Part shown: piece by piece, positions 1 through 18,549 of the stretch
Layout: every line of letters starts with the position of its first letter
Numbering within the stretch: position 1 is the first letter of the stretch
From: Thermoleophilia bacterium
GTDB lineage: Bacteria; Actinomycetota; Thermoleophilia; BMS3ABIN01
Reading direction: 5' to 3'
Assembly (NCBI GenBank): GCA_030650885.1
Contig: JAUSDE010000014.1
Span: forward strand, 1-35,326
Length of the DNA: 35,326 bases
Translations under genes and position numbers: made by a program
The notes under the pieces: generated by a model
What the model was told of the DNA's origin: nothing
Seen by the model: the letters and a program-made list of their open reading frames with translations, nothing else
Databases searched by the model: none

Positions 1-1300
<1,300 letters not shown>

Positions 1301-8542: not shown

Positions 8543-10408
8543 GTGACCCCTTACAATTTTGAACACCCTGATCCTCCGATGACCGGCGATTCCTCTCCAG
8601 GCTCTCAACTGTTCATATACAGATTGCTGCACCTGGCAATCAACCAGGAGTCTCCCGACGGCAGCGTAATGCCCTCGTCTTATCTGGCAGCCAAGAATCT
8701 CGCAAGGCAGCTGGAGATCACGGGTGCAGGGGAACTAAAGGCACTTTTTCGGGATCTGGGGCTCGGGGAACTTCAGATCGATATCACCCGCGATCGTATT
8801 TCGGTATCGATGACCGCAAAATCCCCTGCGTTCCGGGGAGCAGATGAGACTGGCGCTCCCCTCGAACTCGAGCGCGGCCTTGTTGATGGTGCACTTGAGA
8901 TAATCACCGGACTTTCGGTAGAGACGCTTGAAAACACTGGCAGGCTCAGTGATGAGGATGCCCGCTGCTTCGAAGCGGTGCGCGAAGTTATCGGCGGCCA
9001 ACAGCGTTTTATCGCCAGTCTGGCCACAAACCCTGGTGGCTTTACCGGACTCGGCACCAGCAAAACTGGCATTCTCGAGGGTTTTGCTGAAGGTAATGGG
9101 CTCGGGCAGAAAAGCCTCAAATCCTGGTTCATGGACCTGGCCATGCGTGAAGTAGCCCGGGCTCGCCGCCATGGACGCCAGCTTACAGTGATGTATGTGG
9201 ACCTGGATGATCTCGGGCAGATCAACACGGCCCATGGCAGAGCAGCTGGGGACCGGGTGATTCGTGCGGTGGGGACAGCCCTCAGCAAGAGTTGCCGATC
9301 CGAAGACTTTTTGTGGCACCAGGGAGAGGATGAGTTCGCCATCCTGCTCTCGGAGACGGATGCAGATGGCGCCAGCATTGTTGCCAGCAGACTGTCCACC
9401 GAGGTGCTATCCGCAGCTGAATATATAGATATAGCCGCCAAAGTCTCTGCCAGCATTGGTTTTTCGACATTCCCCGTAAATGCGGACAGTGTTCCCGGAC
9501 TATTCGATAGTGCCCGATCAGCTGTCTACCTGGCAAAATCCTTAGGTAAAGGAAGGGCCCAGAGGGCGAGATCCAGCACGGGCATGAATTCAGAAGATAG
9601 CGATAAGGACGTTTCTGGCCTTGATGAGGGGTTGCGGGATTCTACTGCTGGTTCTGGTTCAGGCGCCTCCCGCAGGAGCTCAGGTTTGAGTTCTGATACA
9701 GATACAAAGGAATCCAGGCCATCTGAAATCGTAGAATTGCAGGCAGCCTCCAGGAGTGCACCGGTAGCTTCAGTGATAATCGCGAGCAGCAGCCCGTTGC
9801 TGATAGCGGGAATGCGCCAGGTGCTCATCGATTCGGATAGCTTTCAGATCGTTGCTGAAATATTGGACAACCGCAAATTGTTGTCAGAAATCGCCGACCA
9901 GCGGCCCGATTTGATCTTTGCGGATCTGGAAATGTCGAGAACTGATGATTTCGCAGTTATGAAATTGCTGCGCGGGCATAACCTGCCCTGCAAATATGCG
10001 GTATTCTCCTCTGAGGTAGACCAGGACGTAATCAAGCTCGCAGCTGATTACTCTATCGATGGAGTAATCCTCCAGGAATCTGCTTCTGAAGACGTGATTG
10101 CTGCCTTGCAGGCAGTATTTCGAGGCAAGACTGTACTCCCCGTTGCTGTTGCAGATGCAATGAAGGAACTAACCAAAAACCGTCGGCTGCTTGAAGAGCT
10201 GTCGGAGCGCGAGATCGAGGTACTGCGACTGATAGCCGAAGGAAAGTCCAATTCCCAGATTTCCAATGAACTTTTTATCACGGTGAACACTGTGAGATTC
10301 CACCTTGCAAACATCTACCAGAAGTTGAGTGTTTCGAATCGCACCGAAGCCGCCAATTACTATCTTCGCCAGGATCTGGCTCCGGACGGCCAAACACGTC
10401 TGTTATAG
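8543..10408 (+). CDS. Multidomain regulator: V4R-like + degenerate GGDEF + atypical receiver + LuxR HTH
   Basis: V4R-like segment (LGLGELQI..ERGLVDGALE..ENTG..RCFE); GGDEF fold (VMYVDLDDLGQIN..GD, RSED-x5-GEDEF, SASIG); receiver (PDLIFADLEM); LuxR HTH (LSEREIEVLRLIAEGKSNSQISNELFITVNTVRFHLANIYQKL). Confidence 0.88.
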   Translation: MTPYNFEHPDPPMTGDSSPGSQLFIYRLLHLAINQESPDGSVMPSSYLAAKNLARQLEITGAGELKALFRDLGLGELQIDITRDRISVSMTAKSPAFRGADETGAPLELERGLVDGALEIITGLSVETLENTGRLSDEDARCFEAVREVIGGQQRFIASLATNPGGFTGLGTSKTGILEGFAEGNGLGQKSLKSWFMDLAMREVARARRHGRQLTVMYVDLDDLGQINTAHGRAAGDRVIRAVGTALSKSCRSEDFLWHQGEDEFAILLSETDADGASIVASRLSTEVLSAAEYIDIAAKVSASIGFSTFPVNADSVPGLFDSARSAVYLAKSLGKGRAQRARSSTGMNSEDSDKDVSGLDEGLRDSTAGSGSGASRRSSGLSSDTDTKESRPSEIVELQAASRSAPVASVIIASSSPLLIAGMRQVLIDSDSFQIVAEILDNRKLLSEIADQRPDLIFADLEMSRTDDFAVMKLLRGHNLPCKYAVFSSEVDQDVIKLAADYSIDGVILQESASEDVIAALQAVFRGKTVLPVAVADAMKELTKNRRLLEELSEREIEVLRLIAEGKSNSQISNELFITVNTVRFHLANIYQKLSVSNRTEAANYYLRQDLAPDGQTRLL

Positions 10409-10708
10409 CGGGTTCCGAGCTTATTGATTTTCCGGAAGCTGGGTTTCGAAGTTAATTGTCGCCTGACTTGCCGTAAATCTTCTGCTTTTACTTAGCTCAT
10501 TCGCGCGCTCGATTTTCGCTTCCGGTTTGTATGTATGAAGTAGACATTGAGACTCTGTAATTTCCCTTCTTCCCGATCTCCTGCAGCAAAGCGCCTGCAA
10601 TTGATCGGAATAGTCGTTCACCTTTGCATTCCTATCTCTCATTCAAACCGTCCTTTACCCCATCCCTTGACTATCACTTCATACGTACCAAACTAATTCA
10701 CCCCGATT

Positions 10709-10714
10709 TAGAAT
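10709..10714 (+). promoter_or_regulatory. Candidate -10 element (TAGAAT) for the small-peptide transcript
   Basis: TAGAAT about 9 nt before the first leader hairpin; no good -35, so it may depend on an activator. Confidence 0.4.
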
Positions 10715-10870
10715 CTTTGCATACGTCCCATCAGGACCACTCGGATTTGATGGGACGATCCGCTCCAGATCGGGGGAAGAGCGGAAAAAACGGAGGCTGA
10801 GGGCACCCAAGCCCTTTATCAGCCACGTTTTCCGGGGTTAAAGCTGGGCAACTGGTAGGAGGTGAGCACC

Positions 10871-10951
10871 ATGAGAGCAAAGCTTTTTGGAGCCATGACC
10901 GCATTGGTGATGTTGCTGGCAGCAGGTGGAGGTAGGTGGTGGTGGAGGTAG
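10871..10951 (+). CDS. Unannotated 26-aa peptide MRAKLFGAMTALVMLLAAGGGRWWWR
   Basis: Near-perfect RBS AGGAGGTGA 5 nt before ATG; basic N-terminus, hydrophobic core, GGG, aromatic/basic tail; followed by an intrinsic terminator. Too short for the ORF track. Confidence 0.8.
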   Translation: MRAKLFGAMTALVMLLAAGGGRWWWR

Positions 10952-10970
10952 TCACCTTCATTTATTTTTT
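10943..10970 (+). terminator. Intrinsic terminator closing the peptide gene
   Basis: Stem TGGAGGT / loop AGTC / ACCTTCA (7 bp, one G-U) followed by TTTATTTTTT. Confidence 0.6.
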
Positions 10971-10999
10971 ATAATAACCTTCCAGTCGATGGTTAGGGT

Positions 11000-11008
11000 T
11001 GCTATAAT
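11000..11008 (+). promoter_or_regulatory. Extended -10 promoter for the HD-GYP gene
   Basis: TGCTATAAT about 80 nt upstream of the probable start at 11087. Confidence 0.6.
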
Positions 11009-11086
11009 GCGACCACTTGGCCGCGCGGGCTGTCCATGTGTGTAGGGTGCGGCGTCGCTTTCATCGACTACTTGGGGAGGGTACCG

Positions 11087-12490
11087 ATGGCAGACAGAGA
11101 TCAAGCCAGGCAAAAAGCTCTGGTTGTGCTGACTGCTGTATTAAGCCTCTCGGCTGGTGCCATCTTCTATTATCTTTCCTCGAGATCTTCTTGGTCTAAT
11201 GAAGTAATTTCCCAAACTATTCTTTTGACCATAATTGCCTGGATTGCAGAAGTTCAAGCAGTACAATTCTCAAACCGCGTCCAAGTTAGTAGTGCTAATC
11301 TCCCCGTCCTTCTAGGAATATTTTTTCTCGGTCCTGCGCAAGCTGCCTTAATCGCATGTTTGAGTATATTAGCTGTAAGTCGTGGAAAAGATTACTTACG
11401 AATAATTTTCATAGTTGCTTCGAGTGCTGTTTCAGTGATGACGGTCGGAGCACTTTTTGAATATCTAAGCAGCATTCTTGGTTTCGGAGTGCCGGCTTCA
11501 TTTATTTCCGTTGGCTTTGTCGTCGCTGGCGTTCTCGTTGGCATTATTTGGGAAATAGCAGATTTTTCGTTTACATCCATTGGGATCGCGCTTAGATACA
11601 AGCAAAAGATTATTTCCCTATGGAAAAATAATTTTTTCCCCGCGCTGCCCTCTCAATTAATGATCCTGGGCGTAGGCATAGTTATCGCAGCCGTTTATAT
11701 AAGCGCCGGGATTGCAGCGGCATCCCTGTTCTTCGTGCCAATATTTGCAAGTCAGCACGTATACAAATTACTTGTGCAACAAAAAGAACTACTGGCTGAG
11801 CAGACCAATTTATCTGAAGACCTGATGGATATGAACATTGGCTTGGCGGGAGCCATGATAATGCTGTTGGATAGTAAAGATCATTACACTGCTAGCCATT
11901 CTGCCGGAGTTGCTATGTACTGTCGTGATATGGCCAGAATGATGGGCATGTCCGAGGATGAGCAGCGAATTGCTCATATGGCCGGTCTACTCCATGACCT
12001 GGGAAAAGTCGGTACTCCCGATGCTATTCTTAAGAAGGATGGTGAACTAACAGCGAGAGAATGGGAGCAGATCAAAGAACATCCCACTACAGCAGCAGAG
12101 GTGCTTTCTCAGCTGGCAACACATACAGAAATCGCTGATATAATCCGTCACCACCAGGAGCATTTCGACGGCTCAGGCTATCCTTATGGTATAAGTGGTG
12201 AAGAAATCCCAGAAATGAGTCGGATGCTTTCCGTGGCCGATACATACCATGCCTTGACCTCAGATAGGCCATATCGAGCCGCAAAGAGCCCCTTTGAGGC
12301 ACTAATAATCCTTAGAAAAGTTGCTGGTACACAACTTGATCCCAAGTACGTTGAAGTGATGGCTCAAGTACTAAAGAACGAGGACCTGAGTTACAGGGAG
12401 GGAAGCAAGGCCGACTTTCTCAGTGAATTCCGAAAAGGCCGGCCCGGCCTTAAGTTGGACGATCTCCGCACAACTGCGGATGAAGCCTAA
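11087..12490 (+). CDS. Membrane-sensor HD-GYP cyclic dinucleotide phosphodiesterase
   Basis: ATG 11087 behind GGGGAGG; multi-TM N-terminus (resembles MASE9-type sensors, inference); YTASHS, GLLHDLGK, IKEHP, HHQEHFDGSGYP, VADTYHALTSDRPYR. Confidence 0.92.
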   Translation: MADRDQARQKALVVLTAVLSLSAGAIFYYLSSRSSWSNEVISQTILLTIIAWIAEVQAVQFSNRVQVSSANLPVLLGIFFLGPAQAALIACLSILAVSRGKDYLRIIFIVASSAVSVMTVGALFEYLSSILGFGVPASFISVGFVVAGVLVGIIWEIADFSFTSIGIALRYKQKIISLWKNNFFPALPSQLMILGVGIVIAAVYISAGIAAASLFFVPIFASQHVYKLLVQQKELLAEQTNLSEDLMDMNIGLAGAMIMLLDSKDHYTASHSAGVAMYCRDMARMMGMSEDEQRIAHMAGLLHDLGKVGTPDAILKKDGELTAREWEQIKEHPTTAAEVLSQLATHTEIADIIRHHQEHFDGSGYPYGISGEEIPEMSRMLSVADTYHALTSDRPYRAAKSPFEALIILRKVAGTQLDPKYVEVMAQVLKNEDLSYREGSKADFLSEFRKGRPGLKLDDLRTTADEA

Positions 12491-12769: not shown

Positions 12770-15604
12770 TTAATCAAGAAAAGTTGTATCTTTTTCAGCT
12801 TGTTTTTGAAAATATAAGGCTGCATCGAGGCGGTTCGTAAAACCCATCTTCCTGAAAATTTTTACTACGTGAGTTTTCACTGTTCGCTCTGAGATATAGA
12901 GCATTTGTGCAATTTGGTTATTTGTTAATCCAAGTGAAAGCTTTTCAAGGACTTCAACTTCCCTCATTGTTAGCAGATCTGAAGGACTCTTTAAATTCTT
13001 GCGAAGTTTATACAGGGATTTTCTCACAATTTCTTGTACACTAACTTCGCTGTCATGTCGCATTCTCCTCAAAAGGGCGAGCGCACCGGTCGAACCTATT
13101 CCGCATAACAATTTCGCAATTTTTTCTCTAATTATTTTGTCATCATGTTTTAGTAACGGTTCGATTGAATCCAGCGACCCTTGACCAATTTGCTCGAGAA
13201 TCCAAAAGACATAATCACTCTTTATACCAATTTCCAGGGCAGCCGTAAAAAGGGGTAAGGAAATTCTGCCTTCTTGAATAATGTAATGGTTATGCTGAAA
13301 TTTATCAGCACGTTGTAAAGCTCTAGTTAGATAATATTTCATCTTAAGTTCGTCACTATTCGTGTAACTAGCCCAGGCTCGACTAAAGTCAATTTGAGTA
13401 TTTACATAATTAAGGCCGTATTTTTTTGCGTAGCATTTAGCTGTATTGAAATATTCTTCCGCCTCATCAAATTTATATAGACGTAAAAGATCGGCTGCTA
13501 TATTCGCATTACTCATTGCGACTTCATAAAGTTCATCTGTCAATAAAGCTTCCGACAAGCTGCTCTTATGGAATTTTAATGCTTCACTGGGGTTACCTTG
13601 CCGTCTTGATAAAGTCCCCAGGTGGCAGAGAGAGTCGGCAGTAACATCACTTCGTTTCTGATCAATCCTCAGGGAAACCTCAAGTGCCTCTTCCAATAGT
13701 TGCTTCCCCTTTTTTGCCTCTCCATTGGCGATATGAATGCATCCCAATGTATCTAGAATGGAGGGCAACAATTTGAGTTCATGTCGTTTCTTGATGCCAT
13801 CTTCACAAAGCAAGGCTAATCGTAAAGCTTCATCATATTTACCAAGCATCATCAGACAAGATGCTAAATTGTTTTCGTAGAAATACTGTTGGCTATTTGA
13901 TAACCCATCCCTCGAGCAATACTTAGATAGCGATTTGTATGCAATTTGAAAAATTCCCTGACGCATATTCTGCATTTCCGCTATATTTGTAAAACAAGTT
14001 TTTTGGATACTGTCATCTTCACAAAGAACTGAGTTTGCCATATCGCAACATAATTGAATGCCGTGTTGGTCAAAACTAATCCAATAACTAATAGCTAATT
14101 GAGAAATTACCTCTAGCCTTAGTTCTGGCGATAAGCATCGCAATAAATGGTCCTTTAGTATTTCTATAGCTTCATGTTTATTTCCCAATTCGTTGAGGCA
14201 TTCGCACTCTGCAATTAGTGACTTTGATAGCATCACAAGATTACTTGGGTTCAGAAGTTTTTTGACTTTTTTTAAATCGTTCAGCGCCTTACGAAACTTC
14301 CCAGCTGACATCAGGATCATGGCCTTCTGGATCTGCAAGGTGGGGGTAATGAATATCTCCGGCAGGGAATCGATCCATTTTTCCAGTGTTGCGTACTCTG
14401 CGGAGTTGAGCATTTGATCGCCTGCTTTTTCGATCAGTGCTGCAGCATCGGAGTATTTTTCAGCCGATAGATATTGTTCGATGGCTTTCCATTCCTTCCC
14501 CGCATCCACAAATGCTTTCGCATAATCGTTCCTGATGCGGTTTATGTCCTCCTGTTCATTCTGTTGAAGCAACCGTGAATTAAGGAAGTCACGAAAAAGT
14601 GGGTGATACCGATACATAGCCGCTTCGTCGAGCCTGTTAGTGAAAAGGTTGCGTTGTTCCGCCTCCGCCAGCAATTTTCCTGTACCTGCTAATCCCAGAG
14701 CCTTTTCGCATATAGTCGGATCCACGGGGTCGATCAACGCTGACTTTATCAAAAGCTCCTGCATTTCGACCGGCTGGTTGTTGAGAACTTCCTCTGCAAG
14801 ATATTCATATACATTTTGCTGCATGCGGCTTTGAGAGAATAGATCAGGCATATCGCTACCAGACCTGAGATAGTTCTCAGTCAGCACCAGCCCAGCCGCC
14901 CATCCCTCCGTGCTTCTATGCACTTTGTTCAGAACCGCCGGAGAAGCCTGGATTTCCCAGATATCAGTCAGGCTGGATAATTCGTCCAGGGAAAATTGAA
15001 GGTCCTCATCATTCACGTCCAAGATCAAGCCCTGAGTACGCAAACGGCCAAGGCTGAGTTCAGGGTAATTACGAGTGGCGATGACTAGCTGGGAATTTTC
15101 TGAAAGATTCCGTACCAGATACTCAGCAATGCGAGACCCATGATCAAATTCGTCAAATAGATGAAAATCATCAAAACAAAGCATGAGTGGAGAATCGCCG
15201 TTTTCACGAAGTTCATCGATCAGTACGGCCAGAACGCTCTCAATCTCTACTGAAAATTCAGTGACATCGCCCAGACGCGAGCGGGCTCGGGCTCTTTCGA
15301 ATCCACACGCGTGAGTTATTCCGGCGATAAGGTGCCGCAGGAACACGGCAGGGTCGCGATCCAGATCGTCTACTTGATACCAGACACTGAAACCGGTGAA
15401 TTCCCGGAGCATCTGCGCCATCAGAGTCGTCTTGCCAAAACCCGGGCCTGCGCAGATACTTATTAAGCGCGGAGCGCCGTTTGATCCCGGCCACATTAAG
15501 AGTCGCGGTCGTTCCAGAACCTGGCGCAATCTTGGCGGCCTTAGTTTACCTTCAAGAATATATTTCGAATTTTTGTCCGGCCCTACGACTTCCCGCGGCT
15601 GCAC
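12770..15604 (-). CDS. MalT/LAL-type regulator: STAND ATPase + TPR + HEAT + LuxR HTH
   Basis: KLRPPR, Walker A CAGPGFGKTT, Walker B LCFDDFH, TEGWAAGL, YRYHPLFRDFL, TPR region, HEAT-like pair, LTMREVEVL..ISERTVKTHV. Confidence 0.92.
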   Translation of the reverse strand: MQPREVVGPDKNSKYILEGKLRPPRLRQVLERPRLLMWPGSNGAPRLISICAGPGFGKTTLMAQMLREFTGFSVWYQVDDLDRDPAVFLRHLIAGITHACGFERARARSRLGDVTEFSVEIESVLAVLIDELRENGDSPLMLCFDDFHLFDEFDHGSRIAEYLVRNLSENSQLVIATRNYPELSLGRLRTQGLILDVNDEDLQFSLDELSSLTDIWEIQASPAVLNKVHRSTEGWAAGLVLTENYLRSGSDMPDLFSQSRMQQNVYEYLAEEVLNNQPVEMQELLIKSALIDPVDPTICEKALGLAGTGKLLAEAEQRNLFTNRLDEAAMYRYHPLFRDFLNSRLLQQNEQEDINRIRNDYAKAFVDAGKEWKAIEQYLSAEKYSDAAALIEKAGDQMLNSAEYATLEKWIDSLPEIFITPTLQIQKAMILMSAGKFRKALNDLKKVKKLLNPSNLVMLSKSLIAECECLNELGNKHEAIEILKDHLLRCLSPELRLEVISQLAISYWISFDQHGIQLCCDMANSVLCEDDSIQKTCFTNIAEMQNMRQGIFQIAYKSLSKYCSRDGLSNSQQYFYENNLASCLMMLGKYDEALRLALLCEDGIKKRHELKLLPSILDTLGCIHIANGEAKKGKQLLEEALEVSLRIDQKRSDVTADSLCHLGTLSRRQGNPSEALKFHKSSLSEALLTDELYEVAMSNANIAADLLRLYKFDEAEEYFNTAKCYAKKYGLNYVNTQIDFSRAWASYTNSDELKMKYYLTRALQRADKFQHNHYIIQEGRISLPLFTAALEIGIKSDYVFWILEQIGQGSLDSIEPLLKHDDKIIREKIAKLLCGIGSTGALALLRRMRHDSEVSVQEIVRKSLYKLRKNLKSPSDLLTMREVEVLEKLSLGLTNNQIAQMLYISERTVKTHVVKIFRKMGFTNRLDAALYFQKQAEKDTTFLD

Positions 15605-15708: not shown

Positions 15709-18549
15709 CTAATTACCTCTTCCCGACTCGTCACTTCCTGCACAATTATTATTCTTCTGGTATATGGCCGCAACTTGCGAGCGGCTGGTCAAGCCCAGTT
15801 TTCTGAATATGCTGCTGATATGAGTTTTCGCGGTCGGCTCGCTGATATACAGGCGCTCGGCGAGCTCGGCGTTGCTCATGCCCTCGGCCATGAGTTCCAT
15901 CACCTGATTCTCGCGACGGGTCAGAATCTCTTCCGGAGCATCAATCGTAGACCGCAGACAACGCAGCTCTGCATTAGCTGCCCGCCGAACCGAAACATCC
16001 TGGTCACGGAGCACCCGCCTTATGTAGGGCGCAGCCGCAACGCCACCCGAGGCTGTCAGGGCGGTGATCGCCGCAGCTTTGATCTGAGGCGAACCACTAT
16101 TTAGTAGTGATGCAAAGTCCTCCAGCGCTATCGGGCCTATTGATGGAAGGATTCCTATCATGTACTCGCGTTCGATGTCATGCATGAAAGCAAGTGCCAA
16201 AAGACCTGTGCTAATCCTGCCCTCCTGAATTATGAAGTTATTATGCTGGTATAGAGCGGCAAGTTGCAGAGATTTGCCTATTTCCACGAGCGCCCGTTCC
16301 TCATCCCCGTCCTCGAAAGCAGAACAGGCAAAAATATAATGGACCTGCGTGGAAATATATTTATAGCCGTGCCTCACCGCCAGAATTTGAGCTTCTTCAA
16401 GGTCGTTGATGCCTTGCGGGTCATCATGTTTCCGCCTGAGCCTGTCCGCGCCAAGATTAACCAGGCAGCTCGCGGCCGAATACTGATTTCCCCCGTCACG
16501 ATGATGCAGATACATCGAATGTGCTTCGATCGCCTTATCCAGATCGCCCTGGCGCCGGAAGTGAGATCCCAGATATTTTGGACTGTAGAAGGGGCCAAGA
16601 ACCCTGGAGTCACCAACCTCCCTGTCGAGCGCCTCTATGATCTTTTGGCCGGTATCGCCGTCTTCAATGTTAAGCAGAACAACTCCCCTCAGGAATTCGT
16701 ACCCCATCCTTAGTTGCTGATCCTCATCGCCAAGATATTCGCTCCGCTCAGCGATCGCAGCCAGGGCTTCCTCGTATCTGCCCATCTCATAAAGTGAAAA
16801 TATTTTCCAGGTAAGGATATAGAACCTGATGAGCATCGGCGAGCGCATGCTTGATTCCCCCTGCAGCTCGACGGCTTTATCCTGCAGCAACTGGAACTCT
16901 CCGGCAAACCAGCTGGAAGCCATCCCGTTTGTCGCGAGCACGAAGCGCGTCTCAACCATCGTTACATCACACAAGTCTGTCGCCTGCTCCATAAGTTCCA
17001 ACGCCTCCTGCCCGAACCCCAACAGCAGATTCTGCGTTGCCATGCGGGAAAGAGCCGCCACCTTCTGCTCTGGAGTCATGGCCCATTTCAGGGACTCGGC
17101 AGCGTTTTCCAGGCTTTGGGCGTGCATGTCCCTCATAAAGAAGAATTCAGCTTGGGACAATGCACAGGCGAACAGGCCATCAGAGTCACCATCCCGGGCG
17201 AAGCCATCAGCTGCAGCTTTATACCAGCGCACCGCCAGTTCCACATCCCCCTTATGCTCGCTGGTTCTCGCGGAGTAATACGACATCCAGGGCCTGACCA
17301 TGATGGTATCTTCCGGAATCTGGGAGAGCCATTCCGCCACCGTATCGTAGTGGCCTGCCTCCAGAATCGCTCCGCCCTTTGTCTCGATTATGTCCACAGC
17401 CAGAGCGGGAGATCGCGATTCAAGGAAATGATGAATGGCGAAGTCATATTGTTCATGATCCGCATATGCCTTTCCATAGCGTCCATTCAATGCGTCTATA
17501 TCAGAAATCGGCATGCTTTGTTCGAGCTTGTTCTTAAGAAACTGGCGGACGAGCGGTTGATAAATATAGCTTTTGCCTTCTTCCAGACAGGTTATCATCA
17601 GGTTACGCGTTTCCAGTTCCCGAAGATGCCTGGCCGAGTTCGGTTTTCCATCACCGGCCGTCAAAGCCTGGTCGCAGATTCGAACCTCGACTGCTTCAAG
17701 AATTGAGGTCTCTATAAGGAACTGCTGCAATTCATCGCTCAGCTCTGACCAGACTTCCTCAGCGAGGTAACCGGCTATTGCGCCATGCACACCCAGCAAT
17801 TCCGGATTTACATGAATTGGCAATCGCCGATCAACAGTCAGCAGATTTCTGGCAAGAACGATGGCCACCGGCCATCCCTCAGTGGCGGCGTACCATACCT
17901 TCAGCTCCTCTTCATCCAGTTCCCTGCCGCAACAGCCGTTGAAAATCTCTGCCATCTCTTCGATTGTGAACCTGAGGTCTTCCGTGTCGATTTCCTTCAG
18001 ATTCCTCTGCGTTCGAAGCCGCCCAAGTGACAGAGATGGCTTTCCCCTGCTGGCGATGACGACACGGAAATCTGGGGGCAGATGCGTGATCAGGAATTGC
18101 ACAGCGCCGGCAATATACTCGAAATCCTTCACCAGCTGGAACTCATCGAAAAAAAATACAAACGGCGCTGTTGCGGCGCCGCTGATCTCATTGATGAATA
18201 CCGTCAGGTAACTCTCACATTTGTCAGCATCGTCCATCTTGCCTGGCAGGGCCCTCTCCAGTGAAACACCGAATTCGGGTAAGTGCCGGTTCACGCCCTC
18301 AACCATATGAGCCAGAAATACTGCCAGAGCTCTGTCTGCCGAACTGAACTGATACCAGATTCCCTGACTGTCACGCAGAGACTGGTAGAACTGGCCCATG
18401 AGTGTGGTCTTGCCATATCCCGCGTCGGCGCAGAGGACGGTCAGACGCTCATCGCTCGAACTGAAATCGTCCACGAGCCTGATTCTGGGCAGCATGCGGC
18501 TGCAATCCGGCGGAATCAGCTTGGTTTCAAGGATCAACGGTTTCTTCAT
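15709..18549 (-). CDS. Second MalT/LAL-type regulator: STAND ATPase + TPR + HEAT + LuxR HTH
   Basis: TKLIPP, CADAGYGKTT, FFFDEFQ, TEGWPVAI, HEAT-like pair, LTRRENQVM..ISEPTAKTHI. Confidence 0.92.
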   Translation of the reverse strand: MKKPLILETKLIPPDCSRMLPRIRLVDDFSSSDERLTVLCADAGYGKTTLMGQFYQSLRDSQGIWYQFSSADRALAVFLAHMVEGVNRHLPEFGVSLERALPGKMDDADKCESYLTVFINEISGAATAPFVFFFDEFQLVKDFEYIAGAVQFLITHLPPDFRVVIASRGKPSLSLGRLRTQRNLKEIDTEDLRFTIEEMAEIFNGCCGRELDEEELKVWYAATEGWPVAIVLARNLLTVDRRLPIHVNPELLGVHGAIAGYLAEEVWSELSDELQQFLIETSILEAVEVRICDQALTAGDGKPNSARHLRELETRNLMITCLEEGKSYIYQPLVRQFLKNKLEQSMPISDIDALNGRYGKAYADHEQYDFAIHHFLESRSPALAVDIIETKGGAILEAGHYDTVAEWLSQIPEDTIMVRPWMSYYSARTSEHKGDVELAVRWYKAAADGFARDGDSDGLFACALSQAEFFFMRDMHAQSLENAAESLKWAMTPEQKVAALSRMATQNLLLGFGQEALELMEQATDLCDVTMVETRFVLATNGMASSWFAGEFQLLQDKAVELQGESSMRSPMLIRFYILTWKIFSLYEMGRYEEALAAIAERSEYLGDEDQQLRMGYEFLRGVVLLNIEDGDTGQKIIEALDREVGDSRVLGPFYSPKYLGSHFRRQGDLDKAIEAHSMYLHHRDGGNQYSAASCLVNLGADRLRRKHDDPQGINDLEEAQILAVRHGYKYISTQVHYIFACSAFEDGDEERALVEIGKSLQLAALYQHNNFIIQEGRISTGLLALAFMHDIEREYMIGILPSIGPIALEDFASLLNSGSPQIKAAAITALTASGGVAAAPYIRRVLRDQDVSVRRAANAELRCLRSTIDAPEEILTRRENQVMELMAEGMSNAELAERLYISEPTAKTHISSIFRKLGLTSRSQVAAIYQKNNNCAGSDESGRGN

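Follow-up and report, generated by a model that had tools for sequence, protein, structure and literature searches.

The window analysed here, a stretch of 35,326 nucleotides (nt) from a genome of the Thermoleophilia (Actinomycetota), carries on its forward strand a 26-codon open reading frame (ORF), in the following called the mini-gene, upstream of a gene for a membrane-bound HD-GYP enzyme. The mini-gene starts with ATG at 10871, ends with a TAG stop at 10949-10951 and translates as MRAKLFGAMTALVMLLAAGGGRWWWR. The enzyme gene (11087-12490, forward strand) encodes 467 residues, in which a multi-helix N-terminal half is followed by the HD-GYP domain; its start is taken as the ATG at 11087 behind GGGGAGGG and not as the first in-frame ATG at 11036. 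A first-pass annotation of the sequence had described the ORF, its strong Shine-Dalgarno (SD) sequence and the multi-pass HD-GYP gene, all of which are present as described, and had proposed that the peptide or its Trp-rich end is a ligand or membrane partner of the enzyme. We find that the mini-gene has the substitution pattern of a coding sequence and that it goes with the sensor domain of the enzyme, and we propose that its product probably acts in trans as a small membrane partner of that domain.

Clear orthologues of the enzyme, with identities of 44-100%, were found at 22 loci when 61 related genomes were searched (loci are referred to by L numbers). Of these loci, 20 have an ORF with an SD sequence about 60-170 nt before the enzyme gene, a count that takes in L021 and L007, where the mini-gene is cut by the contig end; at L014 and L020 the mini-gene was not found. 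The ORF has 25-26 codons, with the exception of L005, where it has 28 codons and a TTG start. The conserved small ORF upstream of orthologous HD-GYP genes, on which the first-pass annotation had staked its proposal, was therefore found for most of the orthologues, and the motif that it had suggested for searches (L-A-x-G-[AG]-x-x-W) comes near to what the family actually shares. Among 12 sequences of the window's family, variable alignment columns number 15, 12 and 21 at codon positions 1, 2 and 3, respectively; among four sequences of a sister family the numbers are 12, 5 and 21. The remaining two forward frames are closed by stops in most of the aligned sequences. Because the frame is conserved at constant length, third codon positions are the most variable and a strong SD sequence is kept, the alignments indicate that the 26-codon ORF is a real, conserved gene. 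According to a search of its own genome (1.9 Mb in 198 contigs, 94% complete; 55,786 segments) with a profile of the peptide, the window ORF is the sole match (E 3.8e-12, the next being 3.4), so that one copy of the mini-gene stands against about ten HD-GYP matches.

The mini-gene is linked exclusively to MASE9 genes

MASE9 (Pfam PF20972) is the membrane sensor domain to which the N-terminal half of the enzyme is assigned below. It was searched for in 251 genomes of Actinomycetota, including the unpublished genomes G077, G222 and G282, which were used for the tally only; 81 genomes had a match, and the 30 best loci were studied. The MASE9 domain is joined to an HD-GYP domain at 19 of these loci and to a histidine kinase at nine, while at two it stands alone. 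A member of the mini-gene family is present at 25 of the 30, namely at 18/19 HD-GYP, 5/9 histidine kinase and 2/2 MASE9-only loci. It lies upstream on the same strand at 21 of the 30, which are the 18 HD-GYP genes and the kinase genes of L104, L122 and L124. At L105, L110, L111 and L120 it is encoded on the opposite strand, within the gap that directly precedes the MASE9 gene; its ATG is preceded by a strong SD sequence at a distance of 5-8 nt, and the gap to the MASE9 gene measures 151-221 nt. The mini-gene of L110 overlaps the end of a long antisense reading frame, which may or may not be a gene, and further, weak divergent candidates precede the distant relatives in L024 and L025. Two to three tandem, near-identical copies, each with its own SD sequence, are found upstream of the MASE9-HD-GYP genes of L107, L109 and L116.

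To judge from these loci, the mini-gene accompanies the sensor domain, whatever the output, the neighbours or the strand, and its linkage is exclusive to MASE9 genes. The idea in the earlier proposal that the peptide belongs with the membrane sensor is strengthened by the linkage to MASE9 with either HD-GYP or kinase output and in either orientation. The idea that a second-messenger output had here taken the place of a phosphorelay is not supported, as the same mini-gene also stands beside MASE9 histidine kinases, and neither is the special role given to the Trp-rich tail, as sister lineages have another ending. Moreover, because of the opposite-strand members, the function of the family as a whole cannot be that of a cis-regulatory leader.

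The spread of the gene pair within the Thermoleophilia was followed with an alignment of the sensor domain (residues 1-245 of the enzyme together with those of 16 orthologues), which was used to scan one genome per species. The scan gave 69 further loci, all from metagenome-assembled genome records titled Thermoleophilia, Actinomycetes or Actinomycetota. Run on all 10,128 six-frame segments of these loci, a profile of 18 peptides matches 60 of the 69 at E <= 1e-3, every time on the strand of the enzyme and with the stop of the ORF 68-677 nt (median 177) ahead of the point where the sensor-domain match begins. Six additional loci match weakly (E 0.007-0.53) at the same place, one of them with the mini-gene fused in frame to the enzyme and two with shifted tails, which brings the total to 66/69; the profile gave nothing in three short or contig-edge loci, and the only other match below E 1 is a single one at E 0.66. 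At L093 (2716-4200) the mini-gene continues in frame into the enzyme gene, and at L082 (2730-2900) and L084 (2677-2811) its tail is frameshifted; these forms may be assembly indel errors or real variants.

Sensor domain and output of the enzyme

The sequence matches of its orthologues indicate that the N-terminal domain of the enzyme is of the MASE9 type. The window protein itself stays below the Pfam cut-off, a point weighed in the next section, and the assignment that the first-pass annotation had raised is thus carried by the relatives: 12 of 17 orthologues match MASE9 at E <= 0.01, the best at 6e-7, and the L063 orthologue reaches 34 bits. An AlphaFold2 (AF2) model of the sensor domain alone (mean predicted local distance difference test, pLDDT, 86.8; predicted template-modelling score 0.82) consists of long helices and two short ones at residues 71-80 and 83-97, ahead of the HD-GYP domain, in agreement with the re-entrant hairpin of two short segments described for MASE9.

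Comparison of this model with 48,161 representative chains by VIA-align points to the S-components of energy-coupling factor (ECF) transporters, which occupy all of the top 15 rows with Z scores from 16.0 down to 9.1 (the last being BtuM at 9.1). The next rows are MreD with 8.4 and then unrelated helical proteins from 7.5 down. The best match is RibU (5kbw, Z 16.0), with a root-mean-square deviation of 2.9 over 157 of 170 residues, followed by FolT (5d0y, 15.7), NikM2 (4m5c, 15.2, 190 residues), ThiT (4tkr, 14.9) and BioY (4dve, 14.6); CbiM (5x3x) aligns with Z 12.3 over 184 residues. The matches span almost the entire S-component, and those to NikM2 and CbiM extend over the additional N-terminal helix of the seven-helix form. 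At the level of sequence, a profile of 17 sequences gave no match at E <= 10 among all PDB sequences. The MASE9-type domain is therefore predicted, on the strength of the model, to have the S-component fold, although a common function does not follow from a common fold. Small ligands are bound by S-components in a pocket within the membrane, and in RibU and ThiT this pocket opens to the outside. The predicted fold fits the earlier proposal that MASE9 binds a ligand within the membrane, which is made in the available text of the description of this domain together with its eight predicted membrane segments, two of them short (10.1101/2021.11.05.467447).

The output half of the enzyme conforms to the known HD-GYP domains. 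His-303, Asp-304, His-332, His-356, Glu-358, Gly-362, Gly-364, Tyr-365 and Asp-385 are invariant in 28 sequences, which leaves both the HD and the GYP motifs intact. A full-length model (28-row alignment, pLDDT 84) is matched by Foldseek to PA4781 (4r8z), DvhD (9rbz) and PmGH at E 5e-10 to 2e-9, and the same search also gives RibU, FolT and ThiT at E 0.05-0.2. By profile, motifs and fold, the protein would be an HD-GYP-type phosphodiesterase of cyclic di-GMP (c-di-GMP), for which hydrolysis is predicted. Its architecture, MASE9 followed by HD-GYP, is the same as that of TM1467 of T. maritima and of HdgA of S. venezuelae.

The peptide as a proposed partner of the sensor domain

The window peptide has a basic N-terminus, an uncharged core of 17 residues, a Gly cluster and a basic-aromatic tail, and this layout recurs through the family. 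In an alignment of 37 members the length is 23-32 residues (median 25), the uncharged core 12-22 residues (median 17), and every member has at least two Lys or Arg residues in positions 2-7. An aromatic residue or His is present among the last six residues in 37/37, with Trp there in 26 and Lys or Arg in 32, and the distance of the aromatic residue from the stop varies. The tails differ by lineage, being Trp-rich, Ser-Trp-Lys-Phe or Lys-hydrophobic-His. Most of the lineages represented by the 69 loci end in Lys-hydrophobic-His instead of Trp, so the Trp-rich tail that had been singled out at first is one variant of a basic-aromatic C-terminus. Members of the family are predicted from sequence to be proteins of at most 50 residues with one membrane helix; the composition fits one short helix whose basic head lies in the cytoplasm and whose basic-aromatic tail lies at the membrane interface. 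No Pfam match was found for the window peptide, and no NCBIfam match for it or for the peptide of L126. A lipoprotein reading of variants that contain Cys was considered and rejected, as Cys is not general in the family and the preceding residues fit a lipobox in some members only.

Could so small a protein be the dedicated partner of a membrane sensor? We hypothesize that the product of the mini-gene is a trans-acting single-helix miniprotein that serves as a partner or tethered ligand of the MASE9 domain within the membrane, and we put the probability of this reading at roughly 55%. The basic N-terminus would remain in the cytoplasm, followed by one short membrane helix and the Gly/Ala cluster, and the tail of 3-6 basic and aromatic residues would lie at the outer face. 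Acting in trans, the miniprotein would be dedicated, as an accessory or a tethered ligand, to the MASE9-type domain of the HD-GYP enzyme encoded next to it, and by docking within the membrane or at its surface it would decide whether c-di-GMP is hydrolysed by the cytoplasmic domain. Action in trans is favoured because the mini-gene occurs once per genome and adjoins a MASE9 gene in every case, irrespective of output, neighbours and strand; membrane insertion, orientation, direct binding and an effect on activity we infer.

There are precedents for parts of this arrangement. CbiN and NikN are small membrane proteins that are encoded beside the S-components CbiM and NikM and are needed for their function. 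The pair described here resembles them in that a small membrane-type protein is encoded beside a protein with a predicted S-component fold; it differs in that CbiN has two helices and is about four times longer than the miniprotein, and in that MASE9 forms part of a signalling enzyme and, unlike CbiM and NikM, is not coupled to an ATP-binding cassette module. In its presumed action on the membrane part of a signalling protein, the miniprotein would resemble MgrB and SafA, single-helix proteins of fewer than 50 residues that act on the kinase PhoQ; MgrB, with 47 residues, inhibits PhoQ according to the available text of two reports (10.1101/438515; 10.1101/2022.12.22.521624). In contrast to MgrB and SafA, to which it has no Pfam or NCBIfam relation, the miniprotein is half the size, and it is encoded beside its presumed target, a MASE9 domain mostly with c-di-GMP hydrolysis as output, and not elsewhere in a regulon.

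Several points weigh against a membrane partner. The window protein reaches 19.1 bits over its full length and 20.1 bits for the domain alone, below the Pfam MASE9 cut-off of 24.3. The kinase-linked and divergent members of the peptide family score weakly (E 0.006-2.5) with a second profile, which was built from HD-GYP-linked peptides only and run on 58,279 segments; they are convincing mainly because this profile ranks L111, L105, L120, L124, L122 and L110 above all 55,786 background segments and because they lie just upstream of a MASE9 gene. No mini-gene was found at five of the 30 MASE9 loci, which are L117 (at a contig edge), L118 and three with 773-residue PAS-kinases, and hence not every MASE9 protein requires the partner. 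A core of 17 residues fits a signal peptide equally well. In the window's family the ORF has the same orientation as the enzyme gene, 135 nt upstream of it, with a predicted pairing between an anti-SD block and the SD sequence of the enzyme gene, so a cis effect on expression could operate there. Finally, a second micro-ORF with a shared tail motif, found upstream of the mini-gene in sister lineages and described in the next section, is unexplained by the membrane-partner model. A complex prediction of the sensor domain with the peptide gave 0.16 and 0.08 against a mark of 0.32; the score is uncalibrated for chains of fewer than 30 residues and comes without controls, and it weighs neither way.

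The proposal of a membrane partner can be extended, although only tentatively and with less confidence than the proposal itself. MASE9 sensors may be S-components turned receptors, and the miniprotein may be their encoded, membrane-tethered ligand, with its helix docked beside the domain and its basic-aromatic C-terminus closing off, on the outer side, a pocket of the vitamin-binding type. In that case a single family of peptides would control c-di-GMP hydrolysis as well as phosphorelay throughout the Actinomycetota, with external cues displacing or modifying the tail.

The input of membrane-embedded MASE-type domains is a long-standing gap in c-di-GMP signalling. HdgA, the one MASE9 protein that has been studied, gave no phenotype, and the available text of that report has its authors suspecting that an activating signal was missing (PMC6205966). 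The 25-codon gene linked to MASE9 is a strong candidate for the input of these HD-GYP enzymes. It is unannotated, is of a kind that escapes gene callers and may have been omitted from expression constructs; the S-component fold, for its part, provides a structural hypothesis for the ligand site. The case illustrates how much signalling biology may sit in ORFs of fewer than 30 codons. Three findings are new here: the mini-gene is tied to MASE9 whatever the output, it can be arranged divergently, and the sensor domain is assigned to a fold by prediction. The available texts on MASE9 (10.1101/2021.11.05.467447) and on HdgA (PMC6205966) mention neither an adjacent mini-gene nor an S-component-like fold, and a literature search that left subscription journals and supplements outside its reach turned up no report of a small ORF associated with MASE9 or HD-GYP genes, nor of an S-component-like fold for MASE9.

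An unlikely alternative is that the mini-gene encodes an exported signal, that is, a signal peptide with a cargo of 4-7 residues. Cleavage after the small-residue cluster, at an A-x-A-like site, would free a basic-aromatic pheromone or autocrine cue that is sensed by the MASE9 pocket. Most members do have the n-h-c layout of signal peptides, with small residues before the tail, and the only library matches are of this kind: the peptides of L100 and L044 give sub-threshold NCBIfam matches to signal-peptide models, namely Phr_nterm (E 0.085; 13.4 bits against a cut-off of 25) and lipoprotein signals (E 0.1). The tail varies by lineage, as the tails of pheromones do, tandem copies occur at three loci, and the pocket of the S-component fold is open to the outside. 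Signal-peptide-like mini-ORFs of 20-45 codons, in which the last few residues are the active part, are known from the SHP/Rgg and Phr/Rap systems and from enterococcal precursors of the iCF10 type, and they share with the mini-gene its place beside the gene of a receptor, which here is a presumed one. The receptors of SHP and Phr, however, are cytoplasmic tetratricopeptide repeat (TPR) proteins that are reached after re-import, and their dedicated processing and export functions are known, whereas the Pfam-scanned neighbours of the mini-gene, which differ between lineages, include no conserved gene for either. The same result leaves the quorum-sensing analogy drawn in the first-pass annotation unsupported. 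Furthermore, the genomic copy is single, with no sign of pherotype diversity within a lineage, and we know of no precedent for a cargo of 4-5 residues.

Leader elements and gene neighbourhoods

The features of the locus are collected in Table 1. Several of them bear on a further alternative, a leader peptide acting in cis: translation of the ORF, perhaps with stalling at its Trp-rich or Lys-x-His end, would remodel the leader RNA and so set the expression of the HD-GYP gene, the peptide itself being without function. As an account of the family we consider it improbable, although it may add a layer of control in the co-directional lineages.

Table 1. Features of the mini-gene and the enzyme gene, in window coordinates.
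Feature	Position	Strand	Evidence
-10-like hexamer TAGAAT, candidate promoter of the mini-gene	10709..10714	+	TAGAAT or TAGACT at the same columns in 5/9 family members; L022 has TAAGCT
Hairpin in the 5' untranslated region (10-bp stem, 10724-10733 with 10748-10757)	10724..10757	+	RNAalifold, 9 family members
SD sequence of the mini-gene, AGGAGGTGA	10857..10865	+	5 nt before ATG; GGAGGTG invariant in 9-sequence alignment
Mini-gene, 26 codons and stop	10871..10951	+	conserved ORF with coding substitution pattern
Terminator-like hairpin over the end of the mini-gene, then U-rich tract	10931..10966	+	weak
CCTTCC block	10978..10983	+	RNAalifold pairing with 11075-11080 (enzyme ribosome-binding site) in 9/9
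Extended -10-like TGCTATAAT, between mini-gene and HD-GYP gene	11000..11008	+	TATAAT kept in 9/9 family members
SD sequence of the HD-GYP gene, GGGGAGGG	11074..11081	+	5 nt before ATG 11087; conserved
MASE9-type membrane sensor domain, residues 1-245	11087..11821	+	Pfam MASE9 sub-threshold; orthologue matches; AF2 fold
HD-GYP phosphodiesterase domain, residues 257-420	11855..12346	+	Pfam HD_5, 1.6e-42

In the window's family the 5' untranslated region of the mini-gene measures about 150 nt and is structured: its hairpin has 11 predicted pairs, of which six show a compensatory change in at least one sequence (RNAalifold, n = 9). A simple promoter scan called neither the hexamer at the upstream end nor the extended -10 in front of the enzyme gene, the latter because it has no -35 match. 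At gathering thresholds, Rfam gave nothing in the window except a tRNA gene (1227-1300, reverse strand); at E <= 1 it gave two chance-level matches only in 10400-11120 and none in one sister leader. The mini-gene had been credited with its own terminator, which holds up poorly. The hairpin over its end folds with -12.4 kcal/mol (z -1.37), 17 of 200 shuffled sequences fold as well, and a pattern scan counts five terminator-like sites in the region against 2.3 +/- 1.5 expected. Its stem is not conserved, the orthologues sharing an AT-rich stretch only.

The extended -10 between the two genes had been noticed earlier, and it is present and conserved. The CCTTCC block upstream of it can pair with the ribosome-binding site of the enzyme gene in all nine members, a pairing that is mostly invariant, with two compensatory pairs, both in L022. 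The block also stands at -35 spacing for the conserved TATAAT box, which makes its role ambiguous, and at 27 nt past the stop of the mini-gene it would lie outside the footprint of a terminating ribosome. The promoter-like box and the anti-SD block together suggest that in the window's family the enzyme gene is also under expression control of its own. For a cis-acting leader, the same-strand position of the ORF, the structured 5' region with its compensatory pairs and the anti-SD pairing are points in favour, and the TATAAT box between ORF and gene is a point against.

Of the readings considered, a leader function in cis fits best with a twin micro-ORF of the sister Thermoleophilia, which counts in its favour. 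In all 51 distinct loci (e.g. L044:2700-2930, L063, L066 and L079) a second micro-ORF with its own SD sequence lies within 220 nt upstream of the mini-gene and, like it, ends in Lys/Arg-hydrophobic-His-stop; the background of such tails is four in 639,750 nt. This second ORF is non-hydrophobic and has 8-9 codons from the SD-adjacent start, and in several clades it contains in-frame tandem units of 5, 6 or 8 codons. In the window's own family no conserved counterpart was found ahead of the mini-gene. Both sister ORFs are flanked by conserved motifs that are complementary to one another: GTCAAC and TCGGC, 9-10 nt apart and about 200-300 nt upstream of the enzyme gene, are invariant in 46/46 sister leaders (L042-L096), and in most of these the complementary GCCGATA lies between the mini-gene and the start of the enzyme gene. 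The invariant motifs could be a long-range pairing or a protein site. RNAalifold recovered no local hairpin in the 46 sister 5' regions; that the 5' hairpin of the window's family is not seen there counts against a leader in cis.

What speaks against a leader in cis is the family as a whole. Four clear members are opposite in strand to the MASE9 gene, and the ORF stands beside MASE9 kinases as well as HD-GYP enzymes. The entire peptide is conserved, from the basic head through the hydrophobic core to the Gly cluster, and not just its last residues, and the aromatic residue has no fixed distance from the stop. The comparison with TnaC, a peptide of about 25 codons with a Trp near its C-terminus that is encoded in a structured leader upstream of the regulated gene, goes the same way: the window ORF, with about 25 codons, a Trp near the end and a structured leader, resembles TnaC and the trp leader, in contrast to which the family has members on the opposite strand and beside different outputs and is conserved along the whole peptide.

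Least likely of all is a non-regulatory helper, a small membrane protein that aids the insertion or stability of the polytopic domain or forms a minor subunit of it, which would account for the same linkage, no regulation being visible in the sequence, but which sits badly with the MASE9 proteins that have no mini-gene and with a tail under selection for a basic-aromatic end in 37/37 members, the latter being more in keeping with a specific contact than with general assistance.

Besides the mini-gene locus, the sensor gene is the only gene shared between lineages among the Pfam-scanned neighbours. The window carries a GGDEF-REC-LuxR gene at 8543-10408 on the forward strand, MalT-like AAA-TPR-LuxR regulators at 12770-15604 and 15709-18549 on the reverse strand and, further, an SBP_bac_5 binding protein and a major facilitator superfamily (MFS) transporter. 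The GGDEF-REC-LuxR protein has a weak DUF2507 match, and its counterparts in L032 and L036 have a V4R match; the GGDEF-LuxR gene and one MalT-like gene are present at these two loci and not in the sister lineages. Sensing of the peptide by the MalT-like TPR regulators and its import by the Opp-type binding protein were dropped as candidates, as these neighbours are not conserved outside the window's family. The sister loci are flanked upstream by a divergent MFS_3 gene in L039, L044, L048, L079 and L092 and by an MFS_1 gene in L042. Downstream, a BirA-type biotin ligase is found in six of the seven scanned loci, a LuxR-type gene in five and BioY in L042 and L063; that BioY, itself an S-component, adjoins a sensor with a predicted S-component-like fold may be a coincidence.

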